In this document: piece by piece, positions 1 to 53,646 of the stretch
Layout: each line of letters opens with the position of its first letter
Position numbering within the stretch: position 1 is the first letter of the stretch
Assembly (NCBI GenBank): GCA_963849335.1
Contig: CAWKGZ010000003.1
Location: 1,132,022-1,196,021 of the forward strand
DNA length: 64,000 nucleotides
Reading direction: 5' to 3'
From: an uncultured Chloroflexia bacterium
GTDB lineage: Bacteria > Chloroflexota > Anaerolineae > Anaerolineales > UBA4823
The notes under the pieces: model-generated
What the model was told of the DNA's origin: nothing
Databases searched by the model: none
The model's input: the letters and a program-made list of their open reading frames with translations, nothing else
Program-made: the position numbers and the translations under genes

Positions 1-649
1 CCATTTTCACCTCGGCGATAGCGATATTGTCCAGCCGGGACATGCGCGCCCCGGCATAAAAAGCCAGCTCCACATCCAGCGTCACCCGCTCGCACAGCTG
101 CTTGCTCACCAGGGTCAGGCGGGTGAAGGTGTTCCACAGCTTTGGCTCCAGCGCCTGGCTGTCGTAGGGGTAAACATCCTGCAGCCAACCTTCTGCTTCT
201 TCGGTCATATAGGTCAGCGGCTGCGGCGTGGAGAAGCGCTCCTTGATCGTGCGGTCTTTCGGCGTGCGGTGTTTCACTTCCAGGTAGGAAAGGTGGGTAT
301 CGGTGTATTCCCGGCTGCGCACCTTGTAGCGGTCCGCCCGCCCGTTGACGTGCAGCAGGTACAGCTCAAAGCCCGGGGAGTCGAAGTACAGTGTGCGGTA
401 GTGGTTCAGGCGCTGCCCGTCCACCGCCAGCATCCAGTAATCTTGCTGCAGTGCAGCCAATGCCTGGCGCAGCTGCCCGCTGGACAGCAAGAACTTGGTA
501 TCCGTGCGGTCCAGCAGCGCCACCGCTTCCATCTGCTCCAGTCTGATCGGCTCGTAGTTTTGTGCCAGGGCTGCCAGGCCATAGGGGATGGTGTACCATC
601 CCTGGCTGGTGCCCGGTACTACCCATTGCTGTAGCCGGGATTGGTCCAT
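1..649 (-). CDS. VTC domain-containing protein (polyphosphate-polymerase-like); C-terminus lies beyond the window edge
   Basis: Absent from the ORF track because it has no in-window stop. The reverse strand from ATG (649-647) reads MDQSRLQQWVVPGTSQGWYTIPYG...HVNGRADRYKVRSREYTDTHLSYLEVKHRTPKDRTIKERF...CERVTLDVELAFYAGA and stays open to base 1. The RxKVRxRxY / LEVK block is what I associate with bacterial VTC (PF09359-type) proteins. Confidence 0.65.
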   Translation of the reverse strand, partial: MDQSRLQQWVVPGTSQGWYTIPYGLAALAQNYEPIRLEQMEAVALLDRTDTKFLLSSGQLRQALAALQQDYWMLAVDGQRLNHYRTLYFDSPGFELYLLHVNGRADRYKVRSREYTDTHLSYLEVKHRTPKDRTIKERFSTPQPLTYMTEEAEGWLQDVYPYDSQALEPKLWNTFTRLTLVSKQLCERVTLDVELAFYAGARMSRLDNIAIAEVKM

Positions 650-821
650 TGTGCTCGTTGTATGCCAGGTCGTAGGTTGTATCATGTGTCTCCTGAGGGC
701 GCAAATGTGTAATCGTTGAGAAGCATGATACTGTGAGATCAGCGAAGATTGGTTTATTTTTTGTATAGGGATGGTGAAGTGAAAACATCCTTTTCCAGCA
801 AGAAGCGCATGTTACTCAAAA

Positions 822-916
822 AGACCCTAAAGGTTTCCATTGCTTCCTGGGCGCCAGGATTGCCAGGCATTCGAGTCAGCCATAGTTCGGTCTGGCACGG
901 GAAACCTTTAGGGTCT
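822..916. repeat. Perfect 17-bp inverted repeat (AGACCCTAAAGGTTTCC / GGAAACCTTTAGGGTCT) with a 61-nt spacer, just downstream of the beta-helix lipoprotein gene
   Basis: Arms 822-838 and 900-916 are exact reverse complements. The GACCCTAA(A/G)GG core recurs near 18556, 18695, 46871 and 46915. Confidence 0.8.
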
Positions 917-950
917 GTATTCCAATCAATATAGGCGATCTTCTACGGCC

Positions 951-2803
951 TCATCCTCCCCCACCGCCCCCGCTGCCGATCATCGTTACCACGCCGGAGA
1001 CGGTGAAGCTGGTCAGCTCCGTTCCCGCGCTGTACGCCCCATCCTGGTACAGCCCGTCGACCAGGCTGCCGCTGGAGCTGCCGCCGTAGTACACCGTGTA
1101 CGTCTCACCATTGACCAGCTCTGGCGACGAGAAGGCGATCGACTGGTACTGCTTGGTCGCGGCAAAGGTCAGGATATCTTCGCCGGCGCTGTTCTGAATG
1201 TGGATCAGCGTGCCGGCTGGCAGGCTGCCGTTGAGGTTGATCAGCAGCGAATTCTGGCTGGAGGATCCGTCGGGCGCCTGCGCCATACCGGCGCTGCCTG
1301 CCGCTACCAAAAAGCCGCCGCTCAGGCTGAATCCGCCGTCATAATCCAGCGCGCCGTTCATGTTCTCGGTGGGGCCGTTCACCAGCACCGTTCCGCCGGT
1401 CATGGCGATGGCGCCGTTGATATCCAGCCCATCACCATCCGCATCTACATAGATGTACCCGCCGTTGATATAGAGATAGTAATCGCCGGTAGTAGTTGAA
1501 CGCATCCTGCCCCGGCCCGCCGCCTCGCCCGCCGCCAAAGCCGGGATTCATCCCCGAGGCGTCGTTGCCCGCCGCGACGTTGATGCCGTCATCGCTGGAC
1601 AGGATGTGCATCTCGCCGCCGTTGATCGTGATCACCGCGCTTTCCAGCCCTTCATAGGACTTGGTGATTTGAATATTCCCACCGTTGATGGTCAGCGTGG
1701 CATCCGCGTGCATGCCGTCATCGCCGGAAGCGATGTCGAAGCTGCCGTTGTTGATCGTGATGCTGCCGTTGGAGTGGATCGCGTCGTCGGCGCAGTCGAA
1801 GGCAAAGCGTGCCGCCGTCGATGTTCACGCTCACCACGCCCTTGATGCCCTTCGCCGAGATGGTTTCGTCGGCCCAGGCGCCGCTGCCGCCCCCCGAGTG
1901 CACTGTGATCTCGCCCCCGCGCACCATTACATCCGTCTGCGCGCTGATCGCATCCCCGCCGGCGGTGATGTTCAACACCCCCGCCTCGATGGAGATAAAG
2001 CCTTTGGCCGCGTCTTCTGCGTTGTCGGCTTTCAGCCCGTCGCCCCCGGCCTCGACCGTGATGGCGCCGTCTTCGATCACCAGGTAATCCTTACCGCGCA
2101 CGCCGTCGTCCACCGCCGTCACGTTGATCGTACCGCTGGCGATGATCAGCCCGTCCTTGCTGGCGATGCCGTCGTTGTTGTTGCCCTGCACGCTCAGCGA
2201 GCCGCTGCCGAAGATGGTCAGGTCCGCGGCGCTGAAGATGGCCGCATTGGGCTCATCGGTATCGGGGTTTTCCAGGACATAGTCCTCACCGTCAGAGATC
2301 GTATTGTCTGTATTCTCAGCCAGGTAGATCAGCGTTTCATCGCTCTGCAGGATATAGATCGCTGCGCTGCTCGAATTGTGGATGTCCACGCCGTTCAGGA
2401 TCAGGCGCACCATCCCCTCCGCCTCGCTATTGACGATGATCTGTCCATCATCCAGCGCGCCGCTCAGGCTGTAGGTGCCCGCCGCGGTGATCGTCGCCGT
2501 GCCCCCACCCTCCACCGTGACGCCCTCGCCGTCTACGGAGATCGAATCACCGTTCAGCGTGATCGGGATCACCACCGCATCTTCCCAGGTGTAGTCACTG
2601 GCGTCTTCGTGCACCGTGCTGTTCTCCGCCAGCGCCTCAGCGACCGTCGCCGCGCCGGTGGCGGCGCTGGGGGCGGATACAGTGGTCGTATTTTCGCTTT
2701 GCCCGCTGCTCACCCCGCTGATCGTTTCCGCGCTGCTCGCCGAGCAGGCGCTAAGTGTCAAAACTAAAATAAGCGTGCTGATTGCTGCAATTGTTTTCTG
2801 CAT
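951..2803 (-). CDS. Cthe_2159-type (PF14262-like) carbohydrate-binding parallel beta-helix lipoprotein; reading frame broken twice in this assembly
   Basis: Minus-strand ORFs 1718-2803, 1432-1713 and 951-1538 form one protein. It has the lipoprotein signal MQKTIAAISTLILVLTLSAC, then repeated beta-helix rungs (G-x-I-x-I, DDGI/DDGM/GDGL) that continue across both breaks: ...VNIDGGTL | DDGMHADATLTINGGNIQITKSYEGLES | YLYINGGYIYVDADGDGLDING... The breaks are near ~1800 and ~1510. Confidence 0.7.
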
Positions 2804-2922
2804 ACCAAATCTCCTGTGTTTGCTTTGCTGGAATCCAGCTTGCCTGATTGTACGCGACAGGCGCTCGCTTCAGGTATAGATTTGGTATAGCGCTCGGACA
2901 GGTTTCTACGGTAACCTGCTCG

Positions 2923-4812
2923 TCATATCGTCCCGTCACTCAACTCGAAATTCAAGAACATATTCACTACATCCGGATCGAAATGCTTTCCAGACTGCTC
3001 ACGAATATAATCCAACACTTTTTCTCTGGGCCATGCAGCCCGGTAAGGCCGGTCCGATAAGAGGGCATCCCATACATCGACGATACTGAAGATTCGTGCC
3101 GCCAACGGGATTTGCTTACCTTTTAAACCGCACGGGTAGCCCGTTCCATCCCATTTCTCATGGTGGCAGTAGGGAATATCCAGCGCCGGACGCAGATAGG
3201 CGATGGGGAAGAGCATGTTGTGGGCATACTGCGGGTGTCGCTTCAGGAGCGCCCATTCCTCTTCAGTAGGTTTGCCGGGTTTGAACAGGATGGCGTCGGG
3301 CACGCCTAGCTTGCCGATATCGTGCAAGAGCGCCCCGCGCCGGGTATGGACGAGTTCATCTTCCTTCATGCCTATTACCCTCGCCAGTCGCATGGTGAGT
3401 TCGGTGACACGCAAGGTGTGGCCTTGCGTTTCCCTATCGCGCAAGTCCATAGCTTGCGACCAGCCCTCGATGGTGGCGTCGTAAGCCTGCTGCAACTCCA
3501 GGTTGGAGCACTGCAGGTCAGTGAACAATTGGCTATTATCAATGGCAAGCGCAGCTTGCCCGGCCAGTGTTTTCAGGAAATCCAACCATTCAGTGTTCGG
3601 ATTTGGCGCAGAGCGAAGGAAGACCTCCATCACGCCTTTGACCACACCTTTGGTGATCAGAGGAATACCGAAATAACACACAAAGCCTTCCTGATAAAAT
3701 ATGGGCGAACGTAAGAAGTCCGTCTTGCGGGTTTGAAGATCTGGAAGATGTACGATTTGCCGGCTCATCGCTACCCGGCCAGCGTAACTCTCACCCAGCC
3801 GCAGGTGCGTGTGGTGCAAGGCATCTGTGCGAAAACCGCGGCCAGTGCACCATTCGAGAATTTGGGTATGCGGATCGAGCAGCAAGATGCCGGCAGCATC
3901 TATACCCAATTGAGCCGCGCTCTGCTCTAGTACCAACTTGAGGGCTGGTAGCATGTCCATGTTGGCGGCGATGGTGATGTCTATCTCATGCAAGGCAGCC
4001 AGGCGGTTCAATTGACGGCGAATTTTTTCTTCGGCTTGCTCGCGCTCGGTGATGTCGGTGATCACGGCGATCGCGCCGGCGACTTTACCATCGACCAGGC
4101 GAGGCACGTCTGTAATCAACACCGGCACTTCGTGTCCGTCGCTGTGGCGCAGGCGAGTCTCATAGGTTTCCGAGGTTGCCGATTCAGGGTTGCGTCTGCG
4201 TGCGAGCCCTCTTTCCAACTCCGCCAGACCGGCGTCGATGGTGTAATACTGCAGTCTTTTGCCCGATAGTTCCTCGGGGGTGCTGCCAATCATCCGCGCG
4301 AAGGCAGGGTTGACGTACTCGAAGTATCCTTCGGGGTTGGTGATGATCAACCCTTGCCCCATGCTGTCCATCACCTGTGCAGAAAAGTCACGCTCGGCGC
4401 GCAATGTCTCTTCCGCCCGTTGACGCTCAATCGCATAGCGCAGGACGCGCAACAGCGTAGAACCTTCAATTTCTCTCTTGACCAGGTAATCTTGCGCACC
4501 CTGTCTGATCGCTTCGAGGGTGGTGAAATCATCGCCCAGGCCGCTGAGCACCACAACCGGTATTTTGGGGAACCCTTTAATGATGGTGGTAAGTGTCTCC
4601 AGCCCGTGGCTATCTGGCAGGTTGAGGTCCAGCAGGATCACATCATAGTCCTGCTCAGCAAGCTGGATCAAGCCGTTGGAAAGACAGTCGGCGTGTGTCA
4701 GTTTGATCTTAGCATTTTCGGCCTTTGCTAGAGCAACCCTCAATAGGAGGACGTCATCTGGATCGTCCTCAATCAGCAGGATTTGGATAGTACCAGGGTT
4801 TGTTTTGTCCAT
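2923..4812 (-). CDS. Response regulator with REC-PAS-GAF-HD-GYP architecture (putative c-di-GMP phosphodiesterase output)
   Basis: 629-aa ORF. Receiver domain (ILLIEDDPDDVLLL...DVILLDLNLPDSHG...VVVLSG), then a PAS region, a GAF region, and a C-terminal HD-GYP domain (LHDIGKLGVPD...HHEKWDGTGYPCGL...DVWDALLSDRPYR). Confidence 0.85.
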   Translation of the reverse strand: MDKTNPGTIQILLIEDDPDDVLLLRVALAKAENAKIKLTHADCLSNGLIQLAEQDYDVILLDLNLPDSHGLETLTTIIKGFPKIPVVVLSGLGDDFTTLEAIRQGAQDYLVKREIEGSTLLRVLRYAIERQRAEETLRAERDFSAQVMDSMGQGLIITNPEGYFEYVNPAFARMIGSTPEELSGKRLQYYTIDAGLAELERGLARRRNPESATSETYETRLRHSDGHEVPVLITDVPRLVDGKVAGAIAVITDITEREQAEEKIRRQLNRLAALHEIDITIAANMDMLPALKLVLEQSAAQLGIDAAGILLLDPHTQILEWCTGRGFRTDALHHTHLRLGESYAGRVAMSRQIVHLPDLQTRKTDFLRSPIFYQEGFVCYFGIPLITKGVVKGVMEVFLRSAPNPNTEWLDFLKTLAGQAALAIDNSQLFTDLQCSNLELQQAYDATIEGWSQAMDLRDRETQGHTLRVTELTMRLARVIGMKEDELVHTRRGALLHDIGKLGVPDAILFKPGKPTEEEWALLKRHPQYAHNMLFPIAYLRPALDIPYCHHEKWDGTGYPCGLKGKQIPLAARIFSIVDVWDALLSDRPYRAAWPREKVLDYIREQSGKHFDPDVVNMFLNFELSDGTI

Positions 4813-4875
4813 GAGGTCTGTAGGCTTCTATCAGCGCTTCCTAGTATCAACCATGCACTTAAGTTCCAATTTGAT

Positions 4876-6040
4876 TTATGCTACCCATCCTGGGGATGCT
4901 GATAACCTTTTGGTTATCTCGACAAAAGCCCTCGAGGTATCACAATCGGGCCGGTAGAGCACAACCGGTACTCCCGCGCGTTGTGCTGCGGATACAACTT
5001 CAGCTCCTGTTGGGATAACCCCGCTGACCTCATGCCCCAACCCGGCTCTGAACGCATCGAGTTTAATTGGCGTAGGGACAAGGTGTACGGTTGACCACGA
5101 TTACGCCAATCCGATCCCCCTGCAATCCCCATGCCCTCATCTGCTCTACAGCAACAATTCCCGACGCCAGAGCAGTTGATTCAGGTTCGACAACTAATGT
5201 GACTAGATCACAGCGTTGCATGGATACCTGGTTGGCGACCGAGGGATAGCAGGGTAAATCAAGGATTACATAATCTACCATCGAGGCGATTGTATTGAGT
5301 ATCATCTCCACTTGTTTCGGTTCAATCTCTCGATTTTCTGCCACGCTTTGCGGGCCGACCAAGAGCCTCAAACCTGATGGGAGATCGATCAAATGCGAAC
5401 TAACATCACGCTCACCGATTTTACCTGGATCAAGTTCAAGCAAACTAACCAAACCTAGAGGCTGAACCAGGTTTAACTGGGCCGAGAATGTCCCATAGCT
5501 GGACCTGATTTCTGCAGCTACTACCTTTTTCCCCTGCATGACGAATGCGGTAGCGAAGTTCAGTGCAACCGTAGTTGTGCCGACACCCCCTTTGGCGCCT
5601 ATAAAGCCCAACACCTTGGCTGGTTTTCTAGGTATGGAACGGCGCAAATGGCGATAGCGTAACAAGAGAGCTTTTACACGCGCAAAGAGTTCTTCCGGTG
5701 TAATGGGTTTGGTTAGATATTCATCCGCACCTGCTTCCAAACCTTTGATCTTGTCAGATACTTGCATCTTGGCGCTTAGCATGATGATAGGCAAATCGGC
5801 GGTCTCTTGCCTCTTCCTTAGTTGTTCACATACTTCCACGCCGGTCATGTCTGGCATCATATCATCCAGGATGACTAAATCTGGCGCCTCAGTTTGGACT
5901 TTGCTTAAAGCCTCTGCGCCGTTCGGCGCAACAACCACATCATAACCCTCAGCTTGTAAGGCATAACTGACCATGCGCAATACATTCGGCTCATCATCAA
6001 CAACCAGGATCTTGGCACCCAAGCTAATCCGCTCAACCAT
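4876..6040 (-). CDS. REC domain fused to a CpaE/TadZ/MinD-type P-loop ATPase; one frameshift near ~5080
   Basis: ORF 5063-6040 has a receiver domain (ILVVDDEPNVLRMV...DLVILDDMMPDMTG) plus the deviant Walker A GAKGGVGTTTVALNFA. It stops abruptly at ...VVNRTPCPYAN. A -1/+1 shift continues as LVPTPIKLDAFRAGLGHEVSGVIPTGAEVVSAAQRAGVPVVLYRPDCDTSRAFVEITKRL, a typical MinD/CpaE C-terminus, ending at TAA 4878-4876. Confidence 0.75.
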
Positions 6041-6043
6041 AGA

Positions 6044-7529
6044 TCATCTCCCTTTCCTCTCGGGGATGGTTACGGTGAATGCGCTTCCCACACCCAATTT
6101 ACTCTTCACCGTAATGCATCCTCCGTGAGCTTCAACGAATTGTTGAGAAATATACAGCCCTAAGCCCGTTCCATAGATATTCTTTTTAAGCGGGTTCCTG
6201 ACTTGGTAGAATTTATCAAATACCTTTGATAAGTCTTCTTCAGGAATGCCAGATCCCTGATCAATAATTCGGATCGTTATGTTGCCATTCATTTTCTTCC
6301 CCGAAACCAATATTTTACTGCCTGGTTCAGAGAACTTTATGGCATTCTCCACCAAATTGGCCAACACGCGTCGCATCCGCAACGGATCGACTTCGGCAAT
6401 CATCGATGATTCCATTGGGGCCGATGTCAAAGAAATATGCCCCACATTTGCTTTTTCTTGAAATGATTGTAAGTACTTCCAGGATGACCGCGCCCAGATC
6501 TAGTTCCTCCCAGTTCAACACCAAACGATCACTTTCCAATCGAGAAATATCTAACAATTCGTTCACCATATCCAATAAGCGATCTACATCCTTAGCTGCA
6601 CGTGTAAGGAACTCCTTCTGCACCTCAACATCGTTCACTTTCCCATTGCGCAGCAAGTCCAAATATCCAATCAGGCTAAACAGCGGAGTTCTCAGATCAT
6701 GGGACACACTTGCTATGAATTCTTCCTTCAATTTCATTAGCCGCTTTTCCGCTTCCATCGCATGGATCCACGCAGTGATGTCACGCGTGATACCGATGAA
6801 GGCTGTGGGGGTGCCATGCACGTCGCGAATGATGGCAGTGTTGAGTTCTGCTGAAAAACGACTGCTATCCTTGCGCAGCATTGTGTAATTGATATTTGTG
6901 ACCTTGCCATCTTCGAGCGCCTTCAGGCTATTCTGCACTGCAAATTGTCGTTCTTCCGGAACAATCAGTTCGAAGACATTAATGCCTATCATGGCCTCGG
7001 GGCTATCATAGCCATGTAGGAGCGCCGTTTGTTGATTGCACAGCACCAGTTTGCCTTCCATGTCAGTCAGGGTAATACCATCGGGGGAAGCATCTACCAG
7101 GGCGCGGTATTTGGCCTCGCTTATCCGTAGCACAGACTCGACCTGCTTACGCTCAATCGCATAATGTAGCAGGTGCACCAGGATTGAGCTGCCAATTTCA
7201 CTCTTGACCAGGTAATCTTGCGCACCCAACTCGATCGCTGCAATGGTTGTGGCGTCGTCGGACAGGCCACTGAGTACCACAACCGGCAGCTCGGGGAACC
7301 TTTTGACGATGGTGGTCAGTGTCTCTAGCCCGCGGCTATCTGGCAAGTTGAGGTCCAACAGGACAACATCAAAGTCTTGCTCGGCAAGTTGGATTAAACC
7401 GCTGGAAAGAGTTGCGGCATGTACCAGCTTGATCTGGAGCACATTGGCTTTTGCTAGAGATGTTTTCAATAGCAGGACGTCATCTGGATCATCCTCGATC
7501 AGCAAGGCGCGAATTAGCTCAGTACCCAT
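6044..7529 (-). CDS. Hybrid sensor kinase REC-PAS-HisKA-HATPase_c; one frameshift near ~6450
   Basis: ORF 6327-7619 (likely start MGTELIRALLIEDDPDD at 7529) carries REC, PAS and the H-box FIASVSHDLRTPL. The catalytic domain (RRVLANLVENAIKF...DQGSGIP...GTGLGLYISQQFVEAHGG) lies in overlapping ORF 6044-6445 in another frame. Confidence 0.8.
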
Positions 7530-7542
7530 ATCATTATTCCGT

Positions 7543-8000
7543 TCAGGTACCCTCTGCAGGCAAGCGCACGACATGCTCCCAATACTGCTGCAATCCTTGG
7601 ATGGCTTCAACCAGGCCACCGAATTTCATTGGTTTTGTGATGTAGCCGGCGGCACCAGCATCATAACTTTGCATGATATCTTCCTCGGAATTAGAAGTGG
7701 TTAGCACCACCACCGGGATGCGCCTCAGTGCCGGATCGGCTTTGATTTCTTCGAGGACTTCACGGCCATTTTTGCGCGGCATATTCAGGTCAAGCAAGAT
7801 CACGTCGGGCATGCGGATAGTTCGCCTGGTTGCTGAATTCTCCCTGCCGCCGCAGGTACTCCAACAATTCGACGCCGTCGTTAACGAAGTGTAAGGCATC
7901 ACTCATATTGTCGTTCTCGAAAGGCTTCTTTGACCATCAAACGGTCATCGGAGTCATCCTCGGCCATCAGATAGATTAAATAATTTACTTTGTTACTCAT
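7543..8000 (-). CDS. Single-domain CheY-like response regulator; two frameshifts (~7915 and ~7815)
   Basis: ATG at 8000 overlaps the upstream kinase stop (TGATG). Three frames join to MSNKVNYLIYLMAEDDSDDRLMVKEAF | NDNMSDALHFVNDGVELLEYLRRQGEF... | MPDVILLDLNMPRKNGREVLEEIKADPALRRIPVVVLTTS...GYITKP, a complete receiver domain. Confidence 0.65.
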
Positions 8001-11000
8001 CAGGTCTGTCTCCTTTTAGATTGATGGATGGGCATAGTGACAATGAAGGTTGATCCTTCTCCAGGGGTAGTGGTGGCGGTGATCTTCCCACGATGGCGTT
8101 CGACGATCCGGCGGCAGATGGCTAACCCCATGCCACTGCCCACATATTCTTCCCGGCTGTGCAGGCGCTCGAAGGGCTTGAAAATGCGGTCCAGATATTT
8201 GATGTCAAAGCCAATCCCGTTGTCTTCGACTGAGATCTGACAGTCATCCCCATCGATATTCGCAGATATCTTGATCAGCGGAGATGATCCCTCGCGTTGG
8301 AATTTCAAGGCGTTGATGATCAGGTTTTGTAACAACTGGTGCATCTGGGTCGGGTCAGCCTCGATCATGGGCAGATTGCCGATTTCTATGCGGCCTTGGG
8401 TTCTCTCGATTTGGTTCTCCAGGTCAGAGATCACTTCCTGAGCAACCGTCTTTAGGTCAACTTCGGTATAGGGTCGGGAGCGCGTTCCACGCGGGCGAAG
8501 CTCAACAAGTCAGTGATCAAAGTCATCATGCGCTGGCTGGCGGATTCCATCCGTTTCATGTAGTCGCGTCCGGTTTCGTCGAGCGCATCTCCATATTCGC
8601 TTACTATCAAGTCGCTAAAGGCCAGCACCTTGCGCAGGGGTTCCTGTAAGTCGTGGGAGGCGACGTAGGCAAACTCCTGCAGGTCGCGGTTGCTCTGCTC
8701 GAGGGCAGTCGCGTAAACCTGCAAGTCAATCTCAGCCTGCTTAGCGATGGCTATGTCCTCGATTGTTGTAAGCAAGTGCTGCTCTCCATTAGAAACAAAG
8801 GGAGTAAAGCTGGCAATCCAGCCAGACTTCTTTCCCAAACTCGCTTGTTATATGGATTTCCCGCCGTGTTTCCTTACCGCTGGCTACCACCTCACGGGCA
8901 GACTCGAGCAACCCTGATTTCTTCCAGGATTCAATGGAATTGTAATTCTGGCCCAGAACCTGTGCGCGGGTCGCGCCAAGGATCTTAGCGATTGCCTCGT
9001 TTGCTAAGATGCACTGCCCGGAAGAGTTATAGACACTGATGCCCAATGAAGACGCATTAATCAGCGTAAGGTTTAACTCGAGCGCGTCGGCAATTCGTTG
9101 TTGGATTAGTTTGCGCTCGATGACATTGGTCACTTGAGCGGAGACAAACTCCAGCATTTCCATATCTGCATGACTGAACCGCACGCTCTCAGTGTAACTC
9201 TGTACGGCGATCACACCGAAAATCTTCTCGCCCACTTTCAACGGTACACCCAGCCAATCCACTGAATCACTGCCCACCAGCGCCACTTCGCCTTGCTGGA
9301 CAAGTGATATAAATGTCTGCCTATCAGCCAATAATGGGCGACCGGTGCGCAGTACGTATTCGGTTAAACCGCGGCCTGGTTTTTGGGTCGGGGAGGCTTC
9401 GTCTTTCTGATCCACAAAGTAAGGAAAACTGAGCAAGTCAGTGTCCGGATCGTACAATGCGATGTAGAAGTTGTCCACCGGCATCAGCTTGCCGAGGGCG
9501 CGATGGATGGTGAGATAGAGATCTTCAGGCCTCCCGGTGACCGCCGCGTGGGAGATGGTATACAGCGCCTCCTTCACCAGCTCCGCCTGCCTGCGCTCGG
9601 CGATGTCGGTAAGGAAATTCAATGAAGCGGGCTTGCCTTCCCACTCGATCAATACCGCGCTGATCTCTACCCATGTGGTTGTGCCGTCGCGCCCCATCAA
9701 CCGGAAAGTGTATCTAGGAATCACATCGCCCTTCATCCGGCTCCGATAATGTTCCATCACCAAGCCCCGGTCATCCGGGTGGATGAACTCGGAAAAAGGC
9801 CGCGATAATAATTCCTGCTCCGCATAACCGGATATGTCACAGGTAATGCGATTAACGAACTTAAGCATGCCCTCCTGTATTACGATGATGGCTTCGCTGG
9901 CATTGTCCACCAGCAGGCGGTACTTCTGCTCGCTTTCCTGGAGGGCCAACTCCACACGCCTGCGCTCGGTGGTGTCCAGTACTATGCCTTCCAGACGCAC
10001 GGCTTTGCCCGTTGCATCGTAAAAACCGCGTCCTTTTGCCGCAAGCCAATGGATGCTTCCATCAGGCCAGAGACTGCGATATTCAATGTCGTAATCTTTG
10101 TGATTGTCGAGCGTATCCTTTACCGCCATATCTGTCCTCTCACGGTCATCAGGATGTAATGCATCACTGAAGCGCTGATAGCTCATGGTTTCATCAAGCG
10201 GTATGCCAAAAAGTGCTTTGCACTGATTGGACCAGATCAATTCGCCGGTAACGATATTCCAATTCCAAATCCCGAGATTAGCACCTTCTGTTGCAAAGAG
10301 CAAGCGCTCTTTACTTATCTTAAGAGTTTCTTCCGCCTGCTTGCGCTCGGTGATGTCGGTAAGGAAATTCGATGTAGCCGGCTTGCCTTCCCACTCAATC
10401 AATCCATGTCTGATCTCTACCCATTTGCTTTTGCCATCGCGTTCCAGCATCCGGATGGTGTGTTCATGTGTAATCCTTTCGCCCTTCATCCGGCTCAGAT
10501 AATGTTCCATCACCAGGCCCCGGTCATCCGGGTGGATGAACTCGGAAAAAGGCCGCGATAATAATTCCTGCTCCGAATAACCGGTTAGGTCACATGTAAT
10601 GGGATTGACGAACTTAAGGTAGCCATCCTGTACTACGACGATGGCTTCGCTGGCATTGTCCACCAGCTGGCGGTACTTCTGCTCGCTTTCCTGGATGGCC
10701 AACTCCACACGCTTGTGCTCGCTGATATCCCAGAAAATGCCGAGAATAGCAACGATTTCACCGTTCTCGTCCTTTACCGGTACCTTTATGGTGTGAATCC
10801 ATGTTTCTCTACCTGCCTGCAGGTGCTCATCGTCAAACTCCTCTTGCTGCGCCGTTTCCATGATTCTGATATCCTCCGCCCTGTACTTTTCGGCAGTATC
10901 CTTGGGGAAGAATTCGTAGTCCGTTTTCCCCACGATATCTGCTGGTCGAATACCGAGATCTCGGGCGAAGTTCTCATTGACGGAAAAATATCTTAACTCC

Positions 11001-12607
11001 CTATCCTTCATAAAGATATTTTGCGGAAGGTTCTCAACGAGCGTCCGGTACATCGCCTCGCTTTCCTGGATGGCCAGCTCCGCACGCTTACGCTCGGTGA
11101 TGTCGCGGCTACTGAAGACTGCCCCTGTAGGCGATCCATTGTCGTCATAGATGAGTTTGCCGATTGATTCCAGCCATAGGTAGTGTCCATCCGCATGACG
11201 ATAGCGATACTCCTGCTTTCCTGGCGTTTCAGCTTGGATGATCGCAAGAGCTGCATTTTCCACCCGGTCTCTGTCTTCCGGATGCATATAGTTATAAATT
11301 GACATGCCCAAAAGGCTGGCAGGCTCATACCCTAAAACGGTCTTGTGTGATGGGCTGGCGTACAGGATATTCCCTTGGAAGTCGGTCCGCACGACCATAT
11401 CCAGCATATTTTCGGTAATCAGGCGTAATTGTTCCTCAGAGGCTTGCAGAGCTTCTTCCGCCCGTTTGCGCTCGGTGATATCCGTGTTAGCCCCTCGATA
11501 TCCGAGCAGGTTTCCCTTGTCGTCAAGCAATGGCACCGCGCTGATGGAAAGCCAAACGATTTGACCGTTCTTATGCATGTTGCGGTTGATAAATTCCCGA
11601 AACGGCTGTTTGGCAGCAATAGAGGCAAACACCGTTGCCTTTACCGCTTCCCTGTCCTCCGGGTAAAAAGTGTCATAGAAATTTTTTTGCAGAAACTCCT
11701 CCGGTGTATAGCCCAGGATCTTTTCAATCGCCGGGCTAATATACGTGCACCTACCCCGTGCATCAAGCTCCCAGATGAATTCCTGCGCGTTATCCGAAAT
11801 ATCCCGGAATCTTTGTTCACTATCCTTCAACGCCTGCTCGGCCCGCTTGCGCTCGGTGATGTCGTGATTGGCGCTGACATATCCTGAAAACTGTCCGCTC
11901 TCATCGTGGAGTACAATGGTAGATACCTCGACGGGAAACCGTGTCCCATCTCTGCGTACCTGAGTTACTTCTCCACGCCAGCGTTTTGCCTTGGCTATTG
12001 TGCACCTCATAGCCTCCGCCTCCACATCGGGCCATTCGGTGCATGTTATTTCCAGTCCATTCCGCCCAAGGACTTCCTCCGCCTTCCAACCGTAAAGAGT
12101 TTCCGCTGCCGCGTTCCAGGCGGTTATCCGGTACTGGGAGTCGCAGGCGATGATGGCGTCACTCACGCTTGCCAGCAGATTGGCCTGGTAGCGCAATTGC
12201 TCTTCAACGCGCCTGTGGTCCGCCCGTAGTTGTTTGGCTTCCAGTGCATGACGCACTGCCTGTCCCAGCCGTCCCAGGCGGTCTTTCATCACGTAATCGG
12301 CCGCGCCCTGGCGCATCGCATCCACGGCAGCCTCCTCGCCAATAATCCCGGAGACGATGACGAAGGGAATATCCTGACCGCATTCGTTCAACAACTGCAG
12401 AACACGCATACCGCTGAACTGCGGAAGCGACCAGTCAACCAGGATCAGGTCGGGGTTTGTTTCGAGTCCCGCCAGGAAATCCGCCTCAGTTTCCACGCGC
12501 TGCCAATCTGTGTCAAAACCTGCCTGGTGTAACTCGTGCAGCATCAACTCGGCGTCTGCTGCCTGGTCCTCGACGATCAGCACGCGGATTGGAGTGGACA
12601 TAATCAC
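8000..12607 (-). CDS. Giant hybrid sensor histidine kinase: REC, about eight PAS, GAF, HisKA, HATPase_c; two frameshifts (~8820, ~8500)
   Basis: ORFs 8789-12607, 8452-8838 and 8000-8434 are contiguous parts. There is an N-terminal receiver (VLIVEDQAADAELM...). PAS modules are separated by recurring DITERKRAE-type linkers, followed by a GAF. The H-box is YVASHDLQEPLRKV, and the ATPase motifs are LLQNLIINALKF...DNGIGF...GSGMGLAICRRIVERHRG. Confidence 0.85.
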
Positions 12608-12625
12608 CTCATCATATCTACAATC

Positions 12626-13069
12626 TCAAGGCATTGGCGGTTGGTTGAGCAGAAGCCAGTACAGACCCAACTGCCGCACAGTCTCGGTAAACTTCTTGAA
12701 ATCCACCGGCTTGGTGATGTAACTGTTGACGCCCAACCGGTAACTTTCAACGATATCGCGCTCCTCGCGCGATGAAGTGAGTACCACCACGGGAATCGAA
12801 CGCGTGAACTCATCGCATTTGATGCGCCGTAACACTTCCATCCCATCCACTTTGGGCAATTTCAGATCGAGCAGGATCACCTTCGGCATGTTGTTGAGCT
12901 TGCGTTCCGCAGAATTCCCGCTACAGAAGAGGAATTCCAACGCCTCTGCGCCGTCGCGGACGACGTGAATGCGGTTGGTGAGATTGTTTTTCTTAAAAGC
13001 GTGGAGTGTCAATTCCACGTCGTTGGGATCGTCTTCGACCAGCAGAATTTCGATATAATTATTGTTCAT
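12626..13069 (-). CDS. CheY-like single-domain response regulator
   Basis: 147-aa ORF: [19 protein letters not shown]...[17 protein letters not shown]...PVVVLTSS...NSYITKP. Its start overlaps the stop of the upstream kinase at 13069. Confidence 0.9.
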
Positions 13070-15087
13070 TATCTCTCTCTTCCAAGAGTGAAGTAAAATG
13101 CAGCGCCTTTGTCCACTTCCGCCTCGGCCCAGACGCGCCCACCGTGGCGGTGGACGATCCGCTGGACGATGGCCAGCCCCACGCCGGTTCCTTCGTACTC
13201 TTCAGTACGGTGCAGGCGCTGAAAGACGCCATACAGTTTATCGGCGTATTGCATGTCAAAGCCCACGCCGTTGTCTTTGACAAAGTAAATGGTTTCGCCA
13301 GAGCCTTGCGTAGGTTCGGTACTTTTGGATGTATAACACCCAATCTCGATGCGGGCTGTCTCCCGCTTGCCCGTGAACTTGAGTGCATTGGAGAGCAGAT
13401 TGACAAAGACCTGTTTCAACAGGATTGGATCGGCCTGGCAGGCGGGCAGGTCGCCGACGATGAATTCGACTTGCCGCCCTTCCTGTTCAGCGCGCAAATC
13501 GACCAGCACCTCCCGTACCAGTGTGGCTGGATCCACCGTCTGCTTGTTCAGCGGCTGGCGGCCGAGATGCGAGAAAGCCAGCAGGCCTTCGATCAGACGC
13601 TCCATCCGTTGGGTGTTGTCGTGCAGCAGGTCAAGGTAGCGCTGTGCCTCAATGGGGAAGCCTGAGGCATATTCTTCGAGCAAAATGAGCGAGAAGCCGT
13701 CTATCGCCCGTAGCGGGGCGCGCAGATCGTGCGAGACGGTGTACGAGAAGGCTATCAGCTCCTGGTTGGCGTCTTCTAATTCCTCCGTGCGTCGCTGGAG
13801 CGTCTCATATAGCTGCGCGTTCTTAACCGCAACCCCTATTTGCAGAGCGATAGTTGTCAGCAATGCCAGTTCTTCCGGCAAAAAGGAGCGAGAACGGCGT
13901 GTTGACAGGTTCAGCGCACCCATGGCTTGACCCGCTGATAAGATAGGTATACTCACCGACGATTGAATTCCCTCACGAAGAAGGTGGGGGGCATATCGCG
14001 CCGAAGGATAATCCTGGATATTGAGCACCAGCAGCTTCTGCTCAGCGACAGCCCGTCCTGACATGCCCTCTCCAAGTTTAACCTGGCGGAGGCTCCTGGC
14101 AGTCTCGTCTGAAACACCTCGCATCGCCCGCAATATCAGCGTCTTGCCGTCAGGCTCCAGCAGGTATACACCGCCAATTTCAATATCCAGGGCTTCCAGC
14201 GTCAAATCAATGGCATTACTCAGGCATTTCTCCAGTTCCATTGATTCTGTGATGGCTTGGTTGGTCAGGTAAAGAATAGAGAGTTCGCGGTTGTGTCGGT
14301 GGAGCTCTCCATAAAGGCGCGCTTTCTCCACACCGATGCCTATCTGCTGCCCCAAGATGACTAGAACCTCCAGACCAATCGCGTCGAAATAGTGTGGGCT
14401 GGCCGCTTCCAGGTTCATAACTCCGATTATGCCGCTATGCCCAACGAGTGGTACACTGGCTGCTGACCGTATACCCTCCTTTTCGACAAAAGCACGCAAT
14501 ACCCCTGGGTACTCAGCCAGGCTGTTCACGGTAACCGGCTTGCCTGTTTCCGCTACCTTCCCTGCCAACCCCTCACCCAGCCTTATTCGGCTGAAGGCTT
14601 GAACGAATTCCTCGCTCAGGCCTCGATGGACTGTCATCACCAGCTCGCAAGTTTCTTTGTCGAGTAGCATCATGGTGCCCGCTTCAATACCCACCAGCCG
14701 CAATGATTTGTCCATCGCCCGGTTGAAGATTTCGTCCACGTCCAGCGATTGGTTGACGATGTTTGCCATGGAATTGAGCGCAGTCAAATTGGAGACGCGG
14801 CGACTCAACGCCTCTTCTACACGCTTACACCGGGTAATTTCGCTTTCAAGTTGTATGTTTACTGATTGGAGTTGCGCCGTGAGGTCTCGGACCGACCCTT
14901 CCAGTTCTGCATTGAGTTTGCGGATTTCCTCCTCCGCTAGCTCGCGCTCGGTGACATCGACTTGTTGGTCTTCTTGTTTTCCCCTCTCCCATTCTGCTTC
15001 CCTGGACTGATAGGACTTGATCTTACCCCGTAGGGTGTCAATTTCCTGAATCAGCGCAGCCTCACGTTGCTTATCCATGATCCCCAC
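13069..15087 (-). CDS. Cytoplasmic sensor histidine kinase (coiled coil, two GAF, HisKA, HATPase_c)
   Basis: 672-aa ORF. The N-terminus is coiled-coil rich, followed by two GAF-like regions. The H-box is [16 protein letters not shown] and the catalytic core is [15 protein letters not shown]...DNGVGFD...[26 protein letters not shown]. Confidence 0.9.
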
Positions 15088-15372
15088 TCCAATCGCTAAT
15101 CCGAAGTTCTTCTTTGGTATATCCCAACCTCAAGGCAATGTTCCTGGCCCAAAACGCGGTCTTGCTGGCATGGTTTTGTGAAAGAGCATTGCAGTGATTT
15201 TATGGAATAAGCCAGCTTGTATAATGTTATCATAAAATCATCCTCCAGGGATGGATCACCATGCTCCCGATGGATGGTCAGACTGGCGCGCCTACTCCCT
15301 GAAACTGCTGCCGCCATAGTCGAATAAAATACTTTGCTCCCCCTAAATCCTTATGAACAAAATCACAGAGAT

Positions 15373-15726
15373 TTACGCAGAAATCCCTGGGCGTGTTTCC
15401 AGCTCAGCAAAAGCCATATCAGGGGCTGGCGTTATATCGCAGGTTTGCTTCACAGTCTGGATCAGTAAATTAGAAAATTCGGCCAGGCTGCTGGAATGGA
15501 TCTGCTTGATCTGCTGTTTTTCTTCCCGGGTAAAGGAAAATTTCTCACCACAGAAGCCGTCCTCGATCGATTGAATCGGGTTGGTCAGCAAGGTATTCAG
15601 GAAGCGCTTGCTGATCACCGCGGCGTGGATCAGCCGCCCACACTCCAATAACGTCGATTCATGTGGATCGGAGAATAATTGCGGTGAGGTTGGTACGAAA
15701 TGGTCTACCTGATTAAGGAATGTCAT
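15373..15726 (-). CDS. Small hypothetical protein (117 aa from the ATG preceded by GGAGA); weak resemblance to LigA/NHLP-like helical domains
   Basis: ORF 15373-15750. The internal ATG at 15726 has AAATAGGAGACAGA upstream. The sequence ...RLIHAAVISKRFLNTLLTNPIQSIEDGF...FSFTREEKQQIKQIHSSSLAEFSNLL is protein-like, but I cannot place it in a family. Confidence 0.45.
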   Translation of the reverse strand: MTFLNQVDHFVPTSPQLFSDPHESTLLECGRLIHAAVISKRFLNTLLTNPIQSIEDGFCGEKFSFTREEKQQIKQIHSSSLAEFSNLLIQTVKQTCDITPAPDMAFAELETRPGISA

Positions 15727-16009
15727 TCTGTCTCCTATTTTCTGGATCACTCAGCGACCAAAGCAGCCATAGTGTCCCAACGGCGATCAAGAGATCACCT
15801 GAAAAGTTTGGGTATTAATTTAGGTATTATAAAGATGGGCGGTCTCAAAACAGGCATTAAAGCGGCCTCAATGAGACCAATGATTTCACCAATTACTTGA
15901 TGAGTTTTAAATATAAGGATTGCGTTTGGAGTGAAGGCGCACTGGCAAAATTCAAGCGCGGTAAGGAATCAACTCCAGGATTGTCGCCGCTTGATAAAAT
16001 GCCTGATCC

Positions 16010-17335
16010 CTAGCGGTGACTGCTAGCGTGCGGGTGTGACGGATTTTCTGTCCTGAACATCTCTGCACTGAGCTTATATCCAATCGTCTCCAAGCGTTGG
16101 GAGAACATCGGTCGGATGCCGGTTGGTTTGAAATGGCCGATAACTACGCCTTCGGGTGACACCCCGGTCTGCTCATATTTGAAGATGTCGGACATGACAA
16201 TCGTATCCGATTCCATACCGGCTACTTCCGTAATTGCAGTTATTTTACGCGGCCCATTTCTCAGGCGAGATTGTTGTACGATCAAATCCACGGCAGATGC
16301 AATTTGCTGGCGGATAACCTTTAATGGCAATTCCATCCCGGACATCAGCACCATTGTCTCCAATCGTGAGAGCGCATCACGCGGCGTGTTGGCATGCAAG
16401 GTGGTCAACGAACCATCGTGACCGGTATTCATTGCCTGTAACATGTCGAGCGCTTCACCCCCACGACACTCGCCCACGATGATCCGATCCGGGCGCATGC
16501 GCAGACTGTTCCGAACCATGTCGCGAATGCTGACCTCCCCGTGGCCATCGAGGTCGGGAAGCCTGGCTTCCATTCGGACCACATGTGCCTGATCTAGGCG
16601 AAGTTCAGCAGAATCTTCGATTGTTACGACACGCTCTGTCTCTGGTATAAAACCGGAGAGTACGTTGAGCAAAGTTGTTTTGCCCGAACCCGTACCACCC
16701 GAAATGACGATATTCAGCCTGCCCAACACGCACGCCCGCAGAAAATCAGCCATCAAGGGTGTGAGTGTATCGAATTCGATAAGTTGTTCAATGGTCAATT
16801 TGTTTTTGCTGAATTTCCGGATAGTCAGCATGGGCCCATCGATGGCAACCGGTGGGATCACGGCATTGACCCGTGAGCCATCCGGTAAACGCGCATCCAC
16901 CATCGGGCTTTCAGCGTCCACCCGGCGACCAAGGGGTGCGAGGATTCTTTCGATAATGTGCATGACATGGTCGTCATTAACGAAGGTCACTCTGGTTTCA
17001 GTAATCTTGCCAGCTCGTTCGATGTAAACCTTATCGTAGCGGTTGACCATCACCTCGCTCACCTCAGGGTCATTTAACAAGGGCTGTATCGGGCCATAGC
17101 CAATCAAGTCGTCCAAAATTTCCCGAAAGAGGTGAGCGCGCAGCCTATCTGGTAGTTTTAAGCCGGTCTGCTCGTAAGCTTTGGTCAGGCTCTCTTGAAT
17201 GACTGCCACTCGTTCACCCGGTGATGTTGCTGCCTGATTAAACTCGCGGGTTACGGTGGTGGTGAGATAAGCTTTTAGTTTAGTCAGGTAAGAATCTTGT
17301 TTATCGAGGCTATCGAGATCCACAGGGAGTTCCAT
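16010..17335 (-). CDS. CpaF/TadA-family secretion ATPase (VirB11/PilT-like hexameric ATPase)
   Basis: 441-aa ORF. Walker A is [16 protein letters not shown]. Family-typical blocks are [71 protein letters not shown] and DLIVQQSRL. Confidence 0.9.
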
Positions 17336-17337
17336 AA

Positions 17338-17643
17338 TTAGTCTCCTGTTTCCTCAGACTGGTCTTGAGCTTCTTCTATGGGCATCAACCAGACGATGTG
17401 CTCGCGATTAATAGCCAGAAAGTCGCTAGTATAGAGGATCTCCCCCTCCAGAGTATAGATTTCCGCACGGGTCACGGCTATAAACAGGTTAGCTTTATTG
17501 ATCTCGTCACTCAAACGTTCATCCTGGCGCACATGCACACAGCCCCGGATTCTATGATTCGGAGTCTGGATATGGCATAGAATTATATCTTTTGAGATGA
17601 ATTCGGTAAAAATCTTGCCCTTTTCTTCATAATTGAGACCCAT
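17338..17643 (-). CDS. Small conserved-looking hypothetical protein (101 aa), tightly coupled to the CpaF-type ATPase gene
   Basis: Start ATG 17643 is preceded by AAGGAGATTAACC. The stop lies 2 nt before the cpaF-like ATG. Sequence: MGLNYEEKGKIFTEFISKDIILCHIQTPNHRIRGCVHVRQDERLSDEINKANLFIAVTRAEIYTLEGEILYTSDFLAINREHIVWLMPIEE plus an acidic tail. Confidence 0.55.
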   Translation of the reverse strand: MGLNYEEKGKIFTEFISKDIILCHIQTPNHRIRGCVHVRQDERLSDEINKANLFIAVTRAEIYTLEGEILYTSDFLAINREHIVWLMPIEEAQDQSEETGD

Positions 17644-17929: not shown

Positions 17930-18001
17930 TAGCGGGGCTCAGATTCGAACTGAGGACCTTCGGGTTATGAGCCCGACGAGCTGCCACTGCTCCACCCCGC
18001 A
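17930..18001 (-). tRNA. tRNA-Met (anticodon CAU), initiator type; no encoded CCA
   Basis: The reverse strand folds as U-GCGGGG UG GAGC AGUGGCA GCUC G UCGGG CUCAUAA CCCGA AGGUC CUCAG UUCGAAU CUGAG CCCCGC-U A. It has three consecutive G-C pairs closing the anticodon stem and an unpaired 1:72 position, both hallmarks of bacterial initiator tRNA. The anticodon is at 17969-17967. Confidence 0.85.
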
Positions 18002-18844: not shown

Positions 18845-18928
<84 letters not shown>

Positions 18929-31971: not shown

Positions 31972-35093
<3,122 letters not shown>

Positions 35094-35272
35094 AAGTGCC
35101 TCGGAGAAAAGTGATCAGTGAACAGTAATCAGTAGGTCGGATTTCTATATCCGACCGGTGAAGATATAATAATATTGCACGGTTATCTTAAGTGCAAACA
35201 TTGGAAACGTCAAGCGGATATTAAGGATGCAAACCATTCACACAATCATGAAAATAGCATTACAATAAAGCC

Positions 35273-38325: not shown

Positions 38326-38421
38326 GAGGTCTCCGGGATAGGGGATAGGGGTTGTTGGTAGGATGTTTGATTATTGAGTTTAACACGGAAAATGTAAAAT
38401 TCCAAGGATACGCCGGGGTGG

Positions 38422-53612: not shown

Positions 53613-53646
53613 TCTCTTGCCCTTGCGAAACCCCCAGGCTGAACCA

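Follow-up and report, generated by a model that had tools for sequence, protein, structure and literature searches.

A CpaF-family ATPase gene and a kinase cascade ending in a receiver-MinD protein, possibly two separate modules in an Anaerolineales genome

The locus described here raises the question of whether ten minus-strand genes, which bring together a DUF6812 protein, a CpaF-family motor ATPase, several two-component proteins and a MinD-like ATPase, are parts of one system, and whether this system is a Tad pilus. The genes, named A to J in the direction of transcription (Table 1), lie in a 64-kb stretch of DNA, called the window below, from an uncultured Chloroflexia bacterium of the order Anaerolineales (assembly GCA_963849335.1, contig CAWKGZ010000003.1, positions 1,132,022 to 1,196,021). 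A first-pass annotation made from the sequence had read them as a single 15-kb signalling array feeding into Tad-type ATPases. Comparison with about 100 related loci, designated here by L numbers, leads to a different answer, to which we give an even chance of being correct. The region would consist of two separately conserved modules, A-B and F-G-H-I with J as a branch, which adjoin each other in part of an Anaerolineae-like lineage, with lineage-specific two-component genes in between.

Gene B codes for a true member of the CpaF family: among solved structures it matches Caulobacter CpaF best, with 424 bits, and other T2SSE-type ATPases give at most 151 bits (100-151 bits for an archaeal GspE-like protein, FlaI and VirB11). 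Walker A, Walker B/Glu and the His box are intact, as read directly from the sequence, and more than 100 metagenomic proteins share 74-85% amino acid identity with B. The protein reaches no NCBIfam equivalog cut-off (330 for TIGR03819, against a cut-off of 373) and is 53-63% identical to CpaF of canonical loci, figures that refer to the best tblastn segments. In a neighbor-joining tree the ATPases linked to DUF6812 are monophyletic and stand apart from canonical Chloroflexi CpaF; their sister group is formed by other Chloroflexi paralogues encoded without platform genes (L012, L025, L030 and L018). The surroundings of some of these paralogues were also inspected. In two Chloroflexi metagenome-assembled genomes (MAGs; L012, 9887-15390, and L025, 9893-15395) the platform-less CpaF paralogue is followed by genes for a STAS protein and an RsbW-like HATPase_c_2 kinase. 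This partner-switching module is closed by a GAFx4-SpoIIE phosphatase in L012 and has a long unscanned open reading frame (ORF) at the equivalent position in L025. Two T2SSE ATPase genes stand in tandem in L030. Pilus-less CpaF paralogues of Chloroflexota seem repeatedly to have signalling genes as neighbours.

Gene A, directly upstream of B, codes for a DUF6812 protein 100% identical to a public protein of 101 amino acids (P0241). A DUF6812 gene is likewise placed directly upstream of the ATPase gene in 13 related loci, whose ATPases are 64-79% identical to B and one of which comes from the cultured Ornatilinea apprima (11 detected by hidden Markov model or tblastn, and a partial copy at the edge of L090; the stretch of L087 that was covered stops short of this position). 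A profile search of 1.84 billion representatives recovered 738 family members (clusters at 50% identity), nearly all of them stand-alone proteins of 90-115 amino acids with a few tandem duplications, and no DUF6812-ATPase fusion occurs among the best 150 of these 738 representatives. The profile has no match to the sequences of the PDB. The AlphaFold2 model of A, computed from a shallow alignment of 25 homologues, has five strands and one short helix, with a mean predicted local distance difference test score of 78.6 that exceeds 90 in the core. Foldseek comparison of this model with the PDB gives Sm/LSm proteins as all of the top 50 hits, with E values of only 1.5e-3 to 1e-2 and template-modelling scores of 0.52-0.72 when normalised to the target and about 0.5 when normalised to the query. 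DUF6812 is thus predicted to adopt an Sm/LSm-like five-stranded barrel, and from this model we infer that a ring-forming Sm-like partner for the hexameric ATPase would be an attractive idea. Our literature search found no paper mentioning DUF6812, nor any on platform-less CpaF paralogues or Sm-like partners.

Genes for pilus assembly were searched for in the window in three ways. A Pfam scan of about 50 ORFs (plausible gene calls, almost all of at least 140 amino acids, some overlapping alternative ORFs being left out) gave no match to T2SSF (PF00482), RcpC, Flp or Peptidase_A24. Six-frame tblastn of the 64 kb with TadB, TadC and CpaB seeds from a canonical Chloroflexi locus (L014, with the order RcpC, REC-CpaE, CpaF, T2SSF, T2SSF) had no match, and the CpaE seed of this locus hit gene I only, at 26% identity. 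As a control, the same tblastn was run on 80 genome loci with a CpaF relative, and it finds TadB/TadC next to the ATPase in 68 of them. A regular expression for Flp-type prepilins, run over all six-frame ORFs of at least 40 amino acids, was negative in the window and in every DUF6812 or REC-MinD locus, and positive in 45 related loci. Among the components of a Tad pilus, the 64 kb hold a CpaF-family ATPase, and none of TadB/TadC, Flp, CpaB/RcpC and TadV/CpaA was found. The first-pass annotation was therefore right both in naming B a CpaF-type ATPase and in reporting that TadB/TadC, Flp, CpaB and a prepilin peptidase are absent. Pilus genes are missing beside the ATPase in all 13 related DUF6812-ATPase loci as well. 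Since B falls in a separate clade of the tree, and since the DUF6812-linked loci have no TadB/TadC beside the ATPase in contrast to the control loci, these comparisons assign B to a platform-less, DUF6812-linked paralogue clade of Anaerolineae and not to the canonical Tad motors.

The second module is a cascade of kinases and response regulators. D, F and H carry HisKA and HATPase_c cores (F and H after joining of their frames), and the acidic pocket, phospho-acceptor Asp, Thr/Ser and Lys are conserved in each of the six REC domains. E, the likely cognate partner of D, is 41% identical to G. The kinase core of F is 56-69% identical to the kinase preceding a G-like REC gene in L100 and L101, and G is 63-68% identical to the REC genes at that position. 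H shares 67% identity with a 494-amino-acid kinase that precedes REC-MinD in L089 and L090; an H-like kinase core is also found before REC-MinD in L006, L087, L088, L100 and L101, with 34-50% identity to H in the last two. J, whose motifs HDIGK and HHEKWDGTGYP were read from the sequence, has as best NCBIfam match, below cut-off, a NosR-type response-regulator phosphodiesterase of cyclic di-GMP (c-di-GMP), and is a putative enzyme of this kind. Its REC domain is a close paralogue of that of H (67% identity). L087 and the contig of P0155 encode, upstream of the kinase, an HD_5 protein that stands alone and matches the catalytic part of J at 54% identity. The kinases of L087 (6746-9997) and L006 (7181-9979) fuse an F-like PAS/GAF sensor (39-46% identity to F) to an H-like PAS-HisKA-HATPase core (62-69%), without the G regulator and without an N-terminal REC, which indicates that domains were shuffled within the cascade.

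Gene I codes for a canonical REC followed by a MinD/ParA-type domain with the Walker A sequence KGGVGTTT (Pfam Response_reg, 5e-33, AAA_31, CBP_BcsQ, CbiA and MipZ). Its homologues have 387-388 amino acids and 47-85% identity, and members of the family from the window, L089, L006, L100 and L101 share 47-70%. A scan of metagenome contigs with the repaired REC-MinD protein gave distant REC matches only. A histidine kinase gene ends just before the I-type gene in nine of nine loci, with a gap of 3 nt in six and of 18-37 nt in the others, so that the kinase-MinD coupling singled out by the first-pass annotation is a conserved trait. The name CpaE that it gave to the MinD-like protein is not retained: five canonical Tad CpaE proteins show 36-70% identity among themselves, even across phyla, but only 24-26% to I. 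By this measure I is a family separate from Tad CpaE and not an orthologue, despite its CpaE-like architecture. Neither is a receiver joined to such an ATPase unusual in itself, for canonical Tad CpaE proteins of Chloroflexi and Firmicutes also bear a canonical receiver. Their Walker A sequences are KGGVGCST or KGGAGCTT (L014, L031), KGGVGTTT (L042) and KGGVGKTT (L019, L024).

Each module is found in relatives where the other was not detected. In L001 to L005, whose ATPases are 76-79% identical to B, the DUF6812 gene directly upstream is the sole conserved neighbour of the ATPase gene. The surroundings are housekeeping genes (HIT and ICMT, and in most loci DUF402 and a tRNA synthetase gene further on), and in L001 and L005 ICMT directly follows the ATPase, the H-I cassette being absent at that site. 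A scan of genome contigs found DUF6812 before the ATPase only in the four closest loci, L007 to L010 (64-67% identity), which belong to Ornatilinea apprima, a Leptolinea MAG and two other MAGs. In L007 (7729-9674) a GAF kinase and an OmpR-type regulator stand directly upstream of the DUF6812-ATPase pair, with helix-turn-helix, tetratricopeptide repeat and GNAT genes downstream; L008 to L010 have receiver-domain matches at the position equivalent to this regulator, and the upstream REC of L007 and L008 is 42-49% identical to the REC of I.

The cascade is present in L100 (57% identity to I), which has two REC-KaiB-KaiC triplets, a PAS kinase, REC, REC, a REC-PAS kinase and REC-MinD, and in L101 (49% identity to I), which has a GAF kinase, a GerE regulator, a hybrid kinase, a REC kinase, REC, a REC-PAS kinase and REC-MinD. 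The kinase cores and REC domains of both loci match F, G and H in the same order, and no T2SSE gene was called in either (10 kb upstream in both, and only about 1 kb downstream in L100). A kinase followed by REC-MinD is also present in L006, with no ATPase in the 10 kb upstream. The two consecutive triplets of L100 (positions 1-5000) are directly upstream of its F-G-H-I-like cascade, which hints at a KaiC-type input in that organism. This gave the idea that the AAA+-type P-loop gene found elsewhere in the window (Table 1) might code for a KaiC protein; when tested, it proved not to be KaiC-like. Together with the REC-HisKA-HATPase kinase gene whose start it overlaps, it makes up a further signalling pair.

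In some relatives the modules are close to each other. The order in L089 and L090 is HIT, a 548-amino-acid protein, DUF6812, ATPase, a gap of 925 nt, REC-PAS kinase, REC-MinD and ICMT, so that the grouping of the two ATPases noticed at first recurs there as a compact DUF6812-ATPase-kinase-REC-MinD core. The distance between modules is 9-10 kb in the window and likewise in L087 and the P0155 contig, where five or six unrelated genes lie between them, three on the opposite strand. In the neighbor-joining tree L089 and L090 are nested among loci that lack H-I. None of the relatives examined was found to have C, D or E next to a module. The view of the 15-kb array as one unit is not upheld, as A-B stands alone in L001 to L005 and the cascade occurs without a T2SSE gene in L100 and L101.

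Several points weigh against the two-module reading. Flanks were visible over about 10 kb only, and more distant linkage would be missed; the tree is a crude one, without support values. CpaE-like and CpaF-like ATPases are, by established knowledge, partners in Tad systems (for the role of TadZ/CpaE see PMC11407121). Moreover, the modules are at most about 11 kb apart and on the same strand in three arrangement types of the closest clade (those of the window, L087 and L089), a linkage that could result from selection and so speak for one system.

Such a system would be integrated and pilus-independent: the phosphorelay would act on I, which recruits, positions or activates the A-B motor for cytoplasmic or membrane work other than the assembly of a locally encoded pilus, while the HD-GYP protein adds a c-di-GMP branch. 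We consider this unlikely, though by no means negligible. It agrees with the compact core of L089 and L090, with the maintenance of distance and strand in the window, L087 and the P0155 contig despite different intervening genes, and with the lack of platform or pilin genes in all 13 DUF6812-ATPase loci. The two-component pair that directly precedes A-B in L007, the receiver-domain matches of L008 to L010 and the recurrence of signalling neighbours in the sister paralogues L012 and L025, which adjoin STAS, RsbW-like kinase and SpoIIE-type phosphatase genes, point in the same direction. However, A-B is present without I within 10 kb in nine loci (L001 to L005 and L007 to L010), and I with its cascade lacks a T2SSE gene over the sequence covered in L006, L100 and L101. 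The opposite strand of intervening genes in L087 implies that co-transcription is not conserved, and the ATPase is not fused to DUF6812 in any of the best 150 representatives mentioned above. As a separate question, I could be linked directly to B in function, as CpaE/TadZ is to CpaF, although we lean against this and the data do not require it.

The region could alternatively belong to an ordinary Tad (Flp) pilus with scattered genes, in which B is the sole CpaF, I the sole CpaE, and tadB, tadC, flp, cpaB and tadV are located elsewhere in the genome. The score of B against Caulobacter CpaF and its identity to CpaF of canonical loci would suit this reading, as would the REC and MinD architecture that I shares with canonical Chloroflexi CpaE; the pilus-gene search, besides, covers a 64-kb window of the genome. 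On the other side, canonical Anaerolineae loci are compact (flp, cpaB, cpaE, cpaF, tadB, tadC; L021, L031 and L042; PMC4877987, PMC9942424), B is in a clade separate from canonical CpaF and I has low identity to canonical CpaE. For these three reasons scattered Tad genes are disfavoured by sequence comparison, and the lack of Tad partners in 13 of 13 DUF6812-linked loci, Ornatilinea apprima included, adds to what makes them quite improbable.

A further matter is the state of the genes themselves, since genes F to I contain at least six frameshifts within about 4 kb (approximately 4.9-8.9 kb of the window). F is spread over three frames (8789-12607, 8452-8838 and 8000-8434) and G also over three, which makes two frameshifts in each. 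H lies in two frames, with one frameshift near 6330-6445, and I in two, with one indel near 5075 and its stop codon at 4876-4878. A 1-nt indel would account for the shift in I: when one base of a CCTT site is removed, the conserved motifs regain the spacing that they have in homologues. A codon-usage frame scan combined with Pfam reveals the same splitting outside the array, with 2-3 shifts per gene, in gyrA and three other genes (Table 1). Housekeeping genes are also split in relatives from the same "contig_N" kind of assembly, like the tRNA synthetase gene of L002. Because similar splits affect gyrA and other unrelated window genes, the frameshifts of F to I are most likely assembly indel errors and not signs of pseudogenisation. 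Gene calls in so indel-rich an assembly need frameshift-aware annotation. That the locus is decaying, with real frameshifts that make the cascade and the MinD-like ATPase pseudogenes here, is very improbable: the packing of the shifts into some 4 kb and the truncated I product of 325 amino acids (P0122) held in a public protein collection would fit, but the essential gyrA and three more unrelated genes are split alike, related contigs of the same assembly kind carry split housekeeping genes, the shift in I fits a 1-nt indel at a short CC/TT run, and the conserved domains can still be read at full length, free of internal stops, across the shifted frames.

Table 1. Features of the window, with positions counted from its first nucleotide; genes A to J come first, followed by split genes outside the array and other features.
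Feature	Position	Strand	Product or content	Evidence or remark
Gene A	17338-17643	-	DUF6812 protein, 101 aa	Pfam PF20660, E 3.8e-16
Gene B	16010-17335	-	CpaF/TadA-family hexameric motor ATPase, 441 aa	intact; Pfam T2SSE, E 8e-67
Gene C	15373-15750	-	125-aa ORF	no family match
Gene D	13069-15087	-	GAF-GAF-HisKA-HATPase sensor kinase, 672 aa	Pfam
Gene E	12626-13069	-	single-domain response regulator, 147 aa	Pfam Response_reg, E 8e-20
Gene F	8000-12607	-	kinase with REC, 7 PAS, GAF, PAS-like, HisKA, HATPase	Pfam on three pieces
Gene G	7543-8000	-	single-domain response regulator	Pfam Response_reg on C-terminal piece; N-terminal pieces in other frames
Gene H	6044-7529	-	REC-PAS-HisKA-HATPase kinase	Pfam on both pieces
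Gene I	4876-6040	-	REC and MinD/ParA-type ATPase, 387 aa	after repair of one indel
Gene J	2923-4812	-	REC-PAS-GAF-HD-GYP protein, 629 aa	Pfam HD_5 (PF13487), E 1.3e-33, and Response_reg, PAS, GAF
Cthe_2159 gene	954-2803	-	carbohydrate-binding protein	split over three frames
gyrA	31972-35114	-		split over three frames
Lyase gene	36949-38358	-	beta-eliminating lyase	split over four frames
HD-domain gene	44046-45134	-	HD-domain protein	split over three frames
First tRNA gene	17930-18001	-	tRNA, directly upstream of gene A	Rfam RF00005, 63 bits
Second tRNA gene	18845-18928	-	tRNA, also upstream of gene A	
Promoter-like site	18062-18034			11 of 12 positions match; strongest of the region
Terminator-like hairpin	15389-15366		overlaps stop codon of gene C	
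Kinase gene	19045-21423	+	GAF-HisKA-HATPase kinase, 792 aa	
AAA+-type gene	52314-53612	+	P-loop protein, 432 aa	overlaps start of next gene
Kinase gene	53563-54783	+	REC-HisKA-HATPase kinase	

The ORF listing together with Pfam and NCBIfam scans yields ten consecutive genes arranged head to tail between 2923 and 17643. The first-pass annotation had counted eleven, while itself listing ten, and had left the frameshifts unreported; the domain content and spacing that it described, and most of its remaining observations, are confirmed, as are in essence the junctions. A and B are separated by 2 nt, the stop of D and the start of E overlap as ATGA at 13069 (from the ORF coordinates), those of F and G as TGATG, and gaps of about 13 nt, of 3 nt and of 63 nt follow between G and H, H and I, and I and J.

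Gene C is flanked by non-coding gaps of 259 and 285 nt. It has no Pfam, NCBIfam or PADLOC match and no tblastn homologue in any of the roughly 100 fetched loci, and the 925-nt gap of L089, at the equivalent position, contains no ORF above 67 amino acids; C may be lineage-specific or not a real gene. A terminator-like hairpin overlaps its stop codon, and a promoter-like site precedes the first tRNA gene and marks the upstream edge of the A-B unit; in the scan of the region as a whole, neither promoter nor terminator counts were above shuffled expectation. The two tRNAs are the only Rfam matches of the window; the intergenic gaps yielded neither a riboswitch nor a leader. Beyond gene A, at 1.3 kb and on the opposite strand, a GAF kinase gene is followed by LysM and LytR_cpsA_psr genes, the neighbourhood being generally rich in sensor kinases. 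A known anti-phage defence system was also considered and rejected, PADLOC giving only trivial P-loop or REC matches for A, B, C and I.

How the two modules might work can be proposed from their gene content. In the first, a predicted Sm-like barrel protein is encoded immediately before a CpaF-family ATPase with intact catalytic motifs. The second would be a tiered phosphorelay of cognate kinase-regulator pairs, with phosphoryl transfer from D to E, F to G and H to I, in which the N-terminal REC domains of F, H and J would allow an upstream kinase to gate the next tier. Those of H and J are probably phosphorylated by the same donor, given that they are 67% identical, and such a shared donor would split the signal into a kinase branch, from H to I, and a c-di-GMP-degrading branch through J. 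The terminal output would be I, where phosphorylation of the REC may control ATP-dependent dimerisation of the MinD/ParA domain and hence its localisation or the binding of a partner, conceivably with an effect on B. In its furthest form the proposal would have a ring of Sm-like DUF6812 and a CpaF-derived hexameric motor build a platform-less, pilus-independent machine, set by the phosphorelay through a phosphorylatable MinD/ParA ATPase with c-di-GMP turnover in parallel. We regard this as rather improbable; if true, such a machine of DUF6812 ring and CpaF-derived motor would extend Tad-type motors to a new role in the cell. From the initial interpretation of the locus we thus keep the absence of pilus genes, the conserved kinase-MinD coupling and the uncharacterised nature of the arrangement, and abandon the unity of the array and the Tad identity of the MinD-like protein.

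Among known systems, the closest is the Tad/Flp (type IVc) pilus, whose canonical locus in Chloroflexi and Firmicutes comprises flp, cpaB, REC-cpaE, cpaF, tadB and tadC (for the form found in Anaerolineae see PMC4877987 and PMC9942424; L014, L031 and L042 are examples in our set). The window shares with it a CpaF-family ATPase and a protein made of a receiver and a MinD-type ATPase with a KGGVGxTT Walker A motif. It differs by the lack of a T2SSF platform, CpaB and Flp in 64 kb and by the DUF6812 gene that precedes the ATPase gene, whereas canonical cpaF is directly preceded by cpaE. I, moreover, is encoded 10 kb downstream of B, shows translational coupling to a kinase and has low identity to CpaE, and B belongs to a separate clade of the ATPase tree.

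I resembles TadZ/CpaE in having a receiver-like N-terminus and a MinD-like ATPase with the deviant Walker A lysine (KGG), and it is a plausible positioning or recruiting factor. The receiver domain of TadZ is atypical; that of I is canonical throughout, with Asp, Thr/Ser and Lys in place, and a gene for a dedicated kinase ends 3 nt upstream. TadZ/CpaE is presented in PMC11407121, which cites Perez-Cheeks et al. 2012 on this point, as the MinD/ParA-family docking and localisation ATPase of Tad systems. Unlike it, I ends a conserved multi-kinase cascade, also in genomes without a nearby CpaF-like gene. With a MinD/ParA ATPase joined to a canonical REC and a kinase of its own, two-component signalling would have an output that works by positioning or recruitment instead of transcription; no such output was found described for the ParA/MinD family in the review PMC11407121.

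The genetic setting of B finds parallels elsewhere among the hexameric ATPases of the PilT/VirB11 class. Motors of type IV filaments can be encoded away from their machinery or act with small accessory proteins, as do the retraction ATPases PilT and PilU, and PilB with PilZ and FimX. B is likewise a member of this class, encoded without platform genes and beside a small protein predicted to be a beta-barrel. In contrast to the PilT and PilB systems, it is of the CpaF family, its DUF6812 partner is predicted to be Sm-like and not of PilZ fold, and no pilus genes were found with it in the 64 kb. CpaF-type ATPases are the motors of Tad pili and act, as far as is known, through TadB/TadC platforms. 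In a conserved clade with many metagenomic relatives, DUF6812 is the constant partner and platform or pilin genes are never adjacent; such ATPases may serve Tad pili in trans as a second motor, or this class of motor may have taken on a new task.

The cascade, finally, is comparable to known multi-kinase networks whose kinases bear a fused N-terminal receiver, and to GAF/phytochrome-type kinases that work with single-domain regulators as in the Cph1-Rcp1 type. It has in common with them consecutive kinase-regulator pairs that overlap or nearly abut, an N-terminal REC on the downstream kinases and the single-domain regulators E and G. It differs in having as terminal output a MinD/ParA-type ATPase in place of a DNA-binding or enzymatic domain, and in the presence of a paralogous REC-PAS-GAF-HD-GYP branch. 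Measured against these systems, the arrangement looks like an uncharacterised variant and not like a new kind of system, and its platform-less motor and REC-MinD protein are testable candidates in Chloroflexota, a phylum whose cell biology is little studied.

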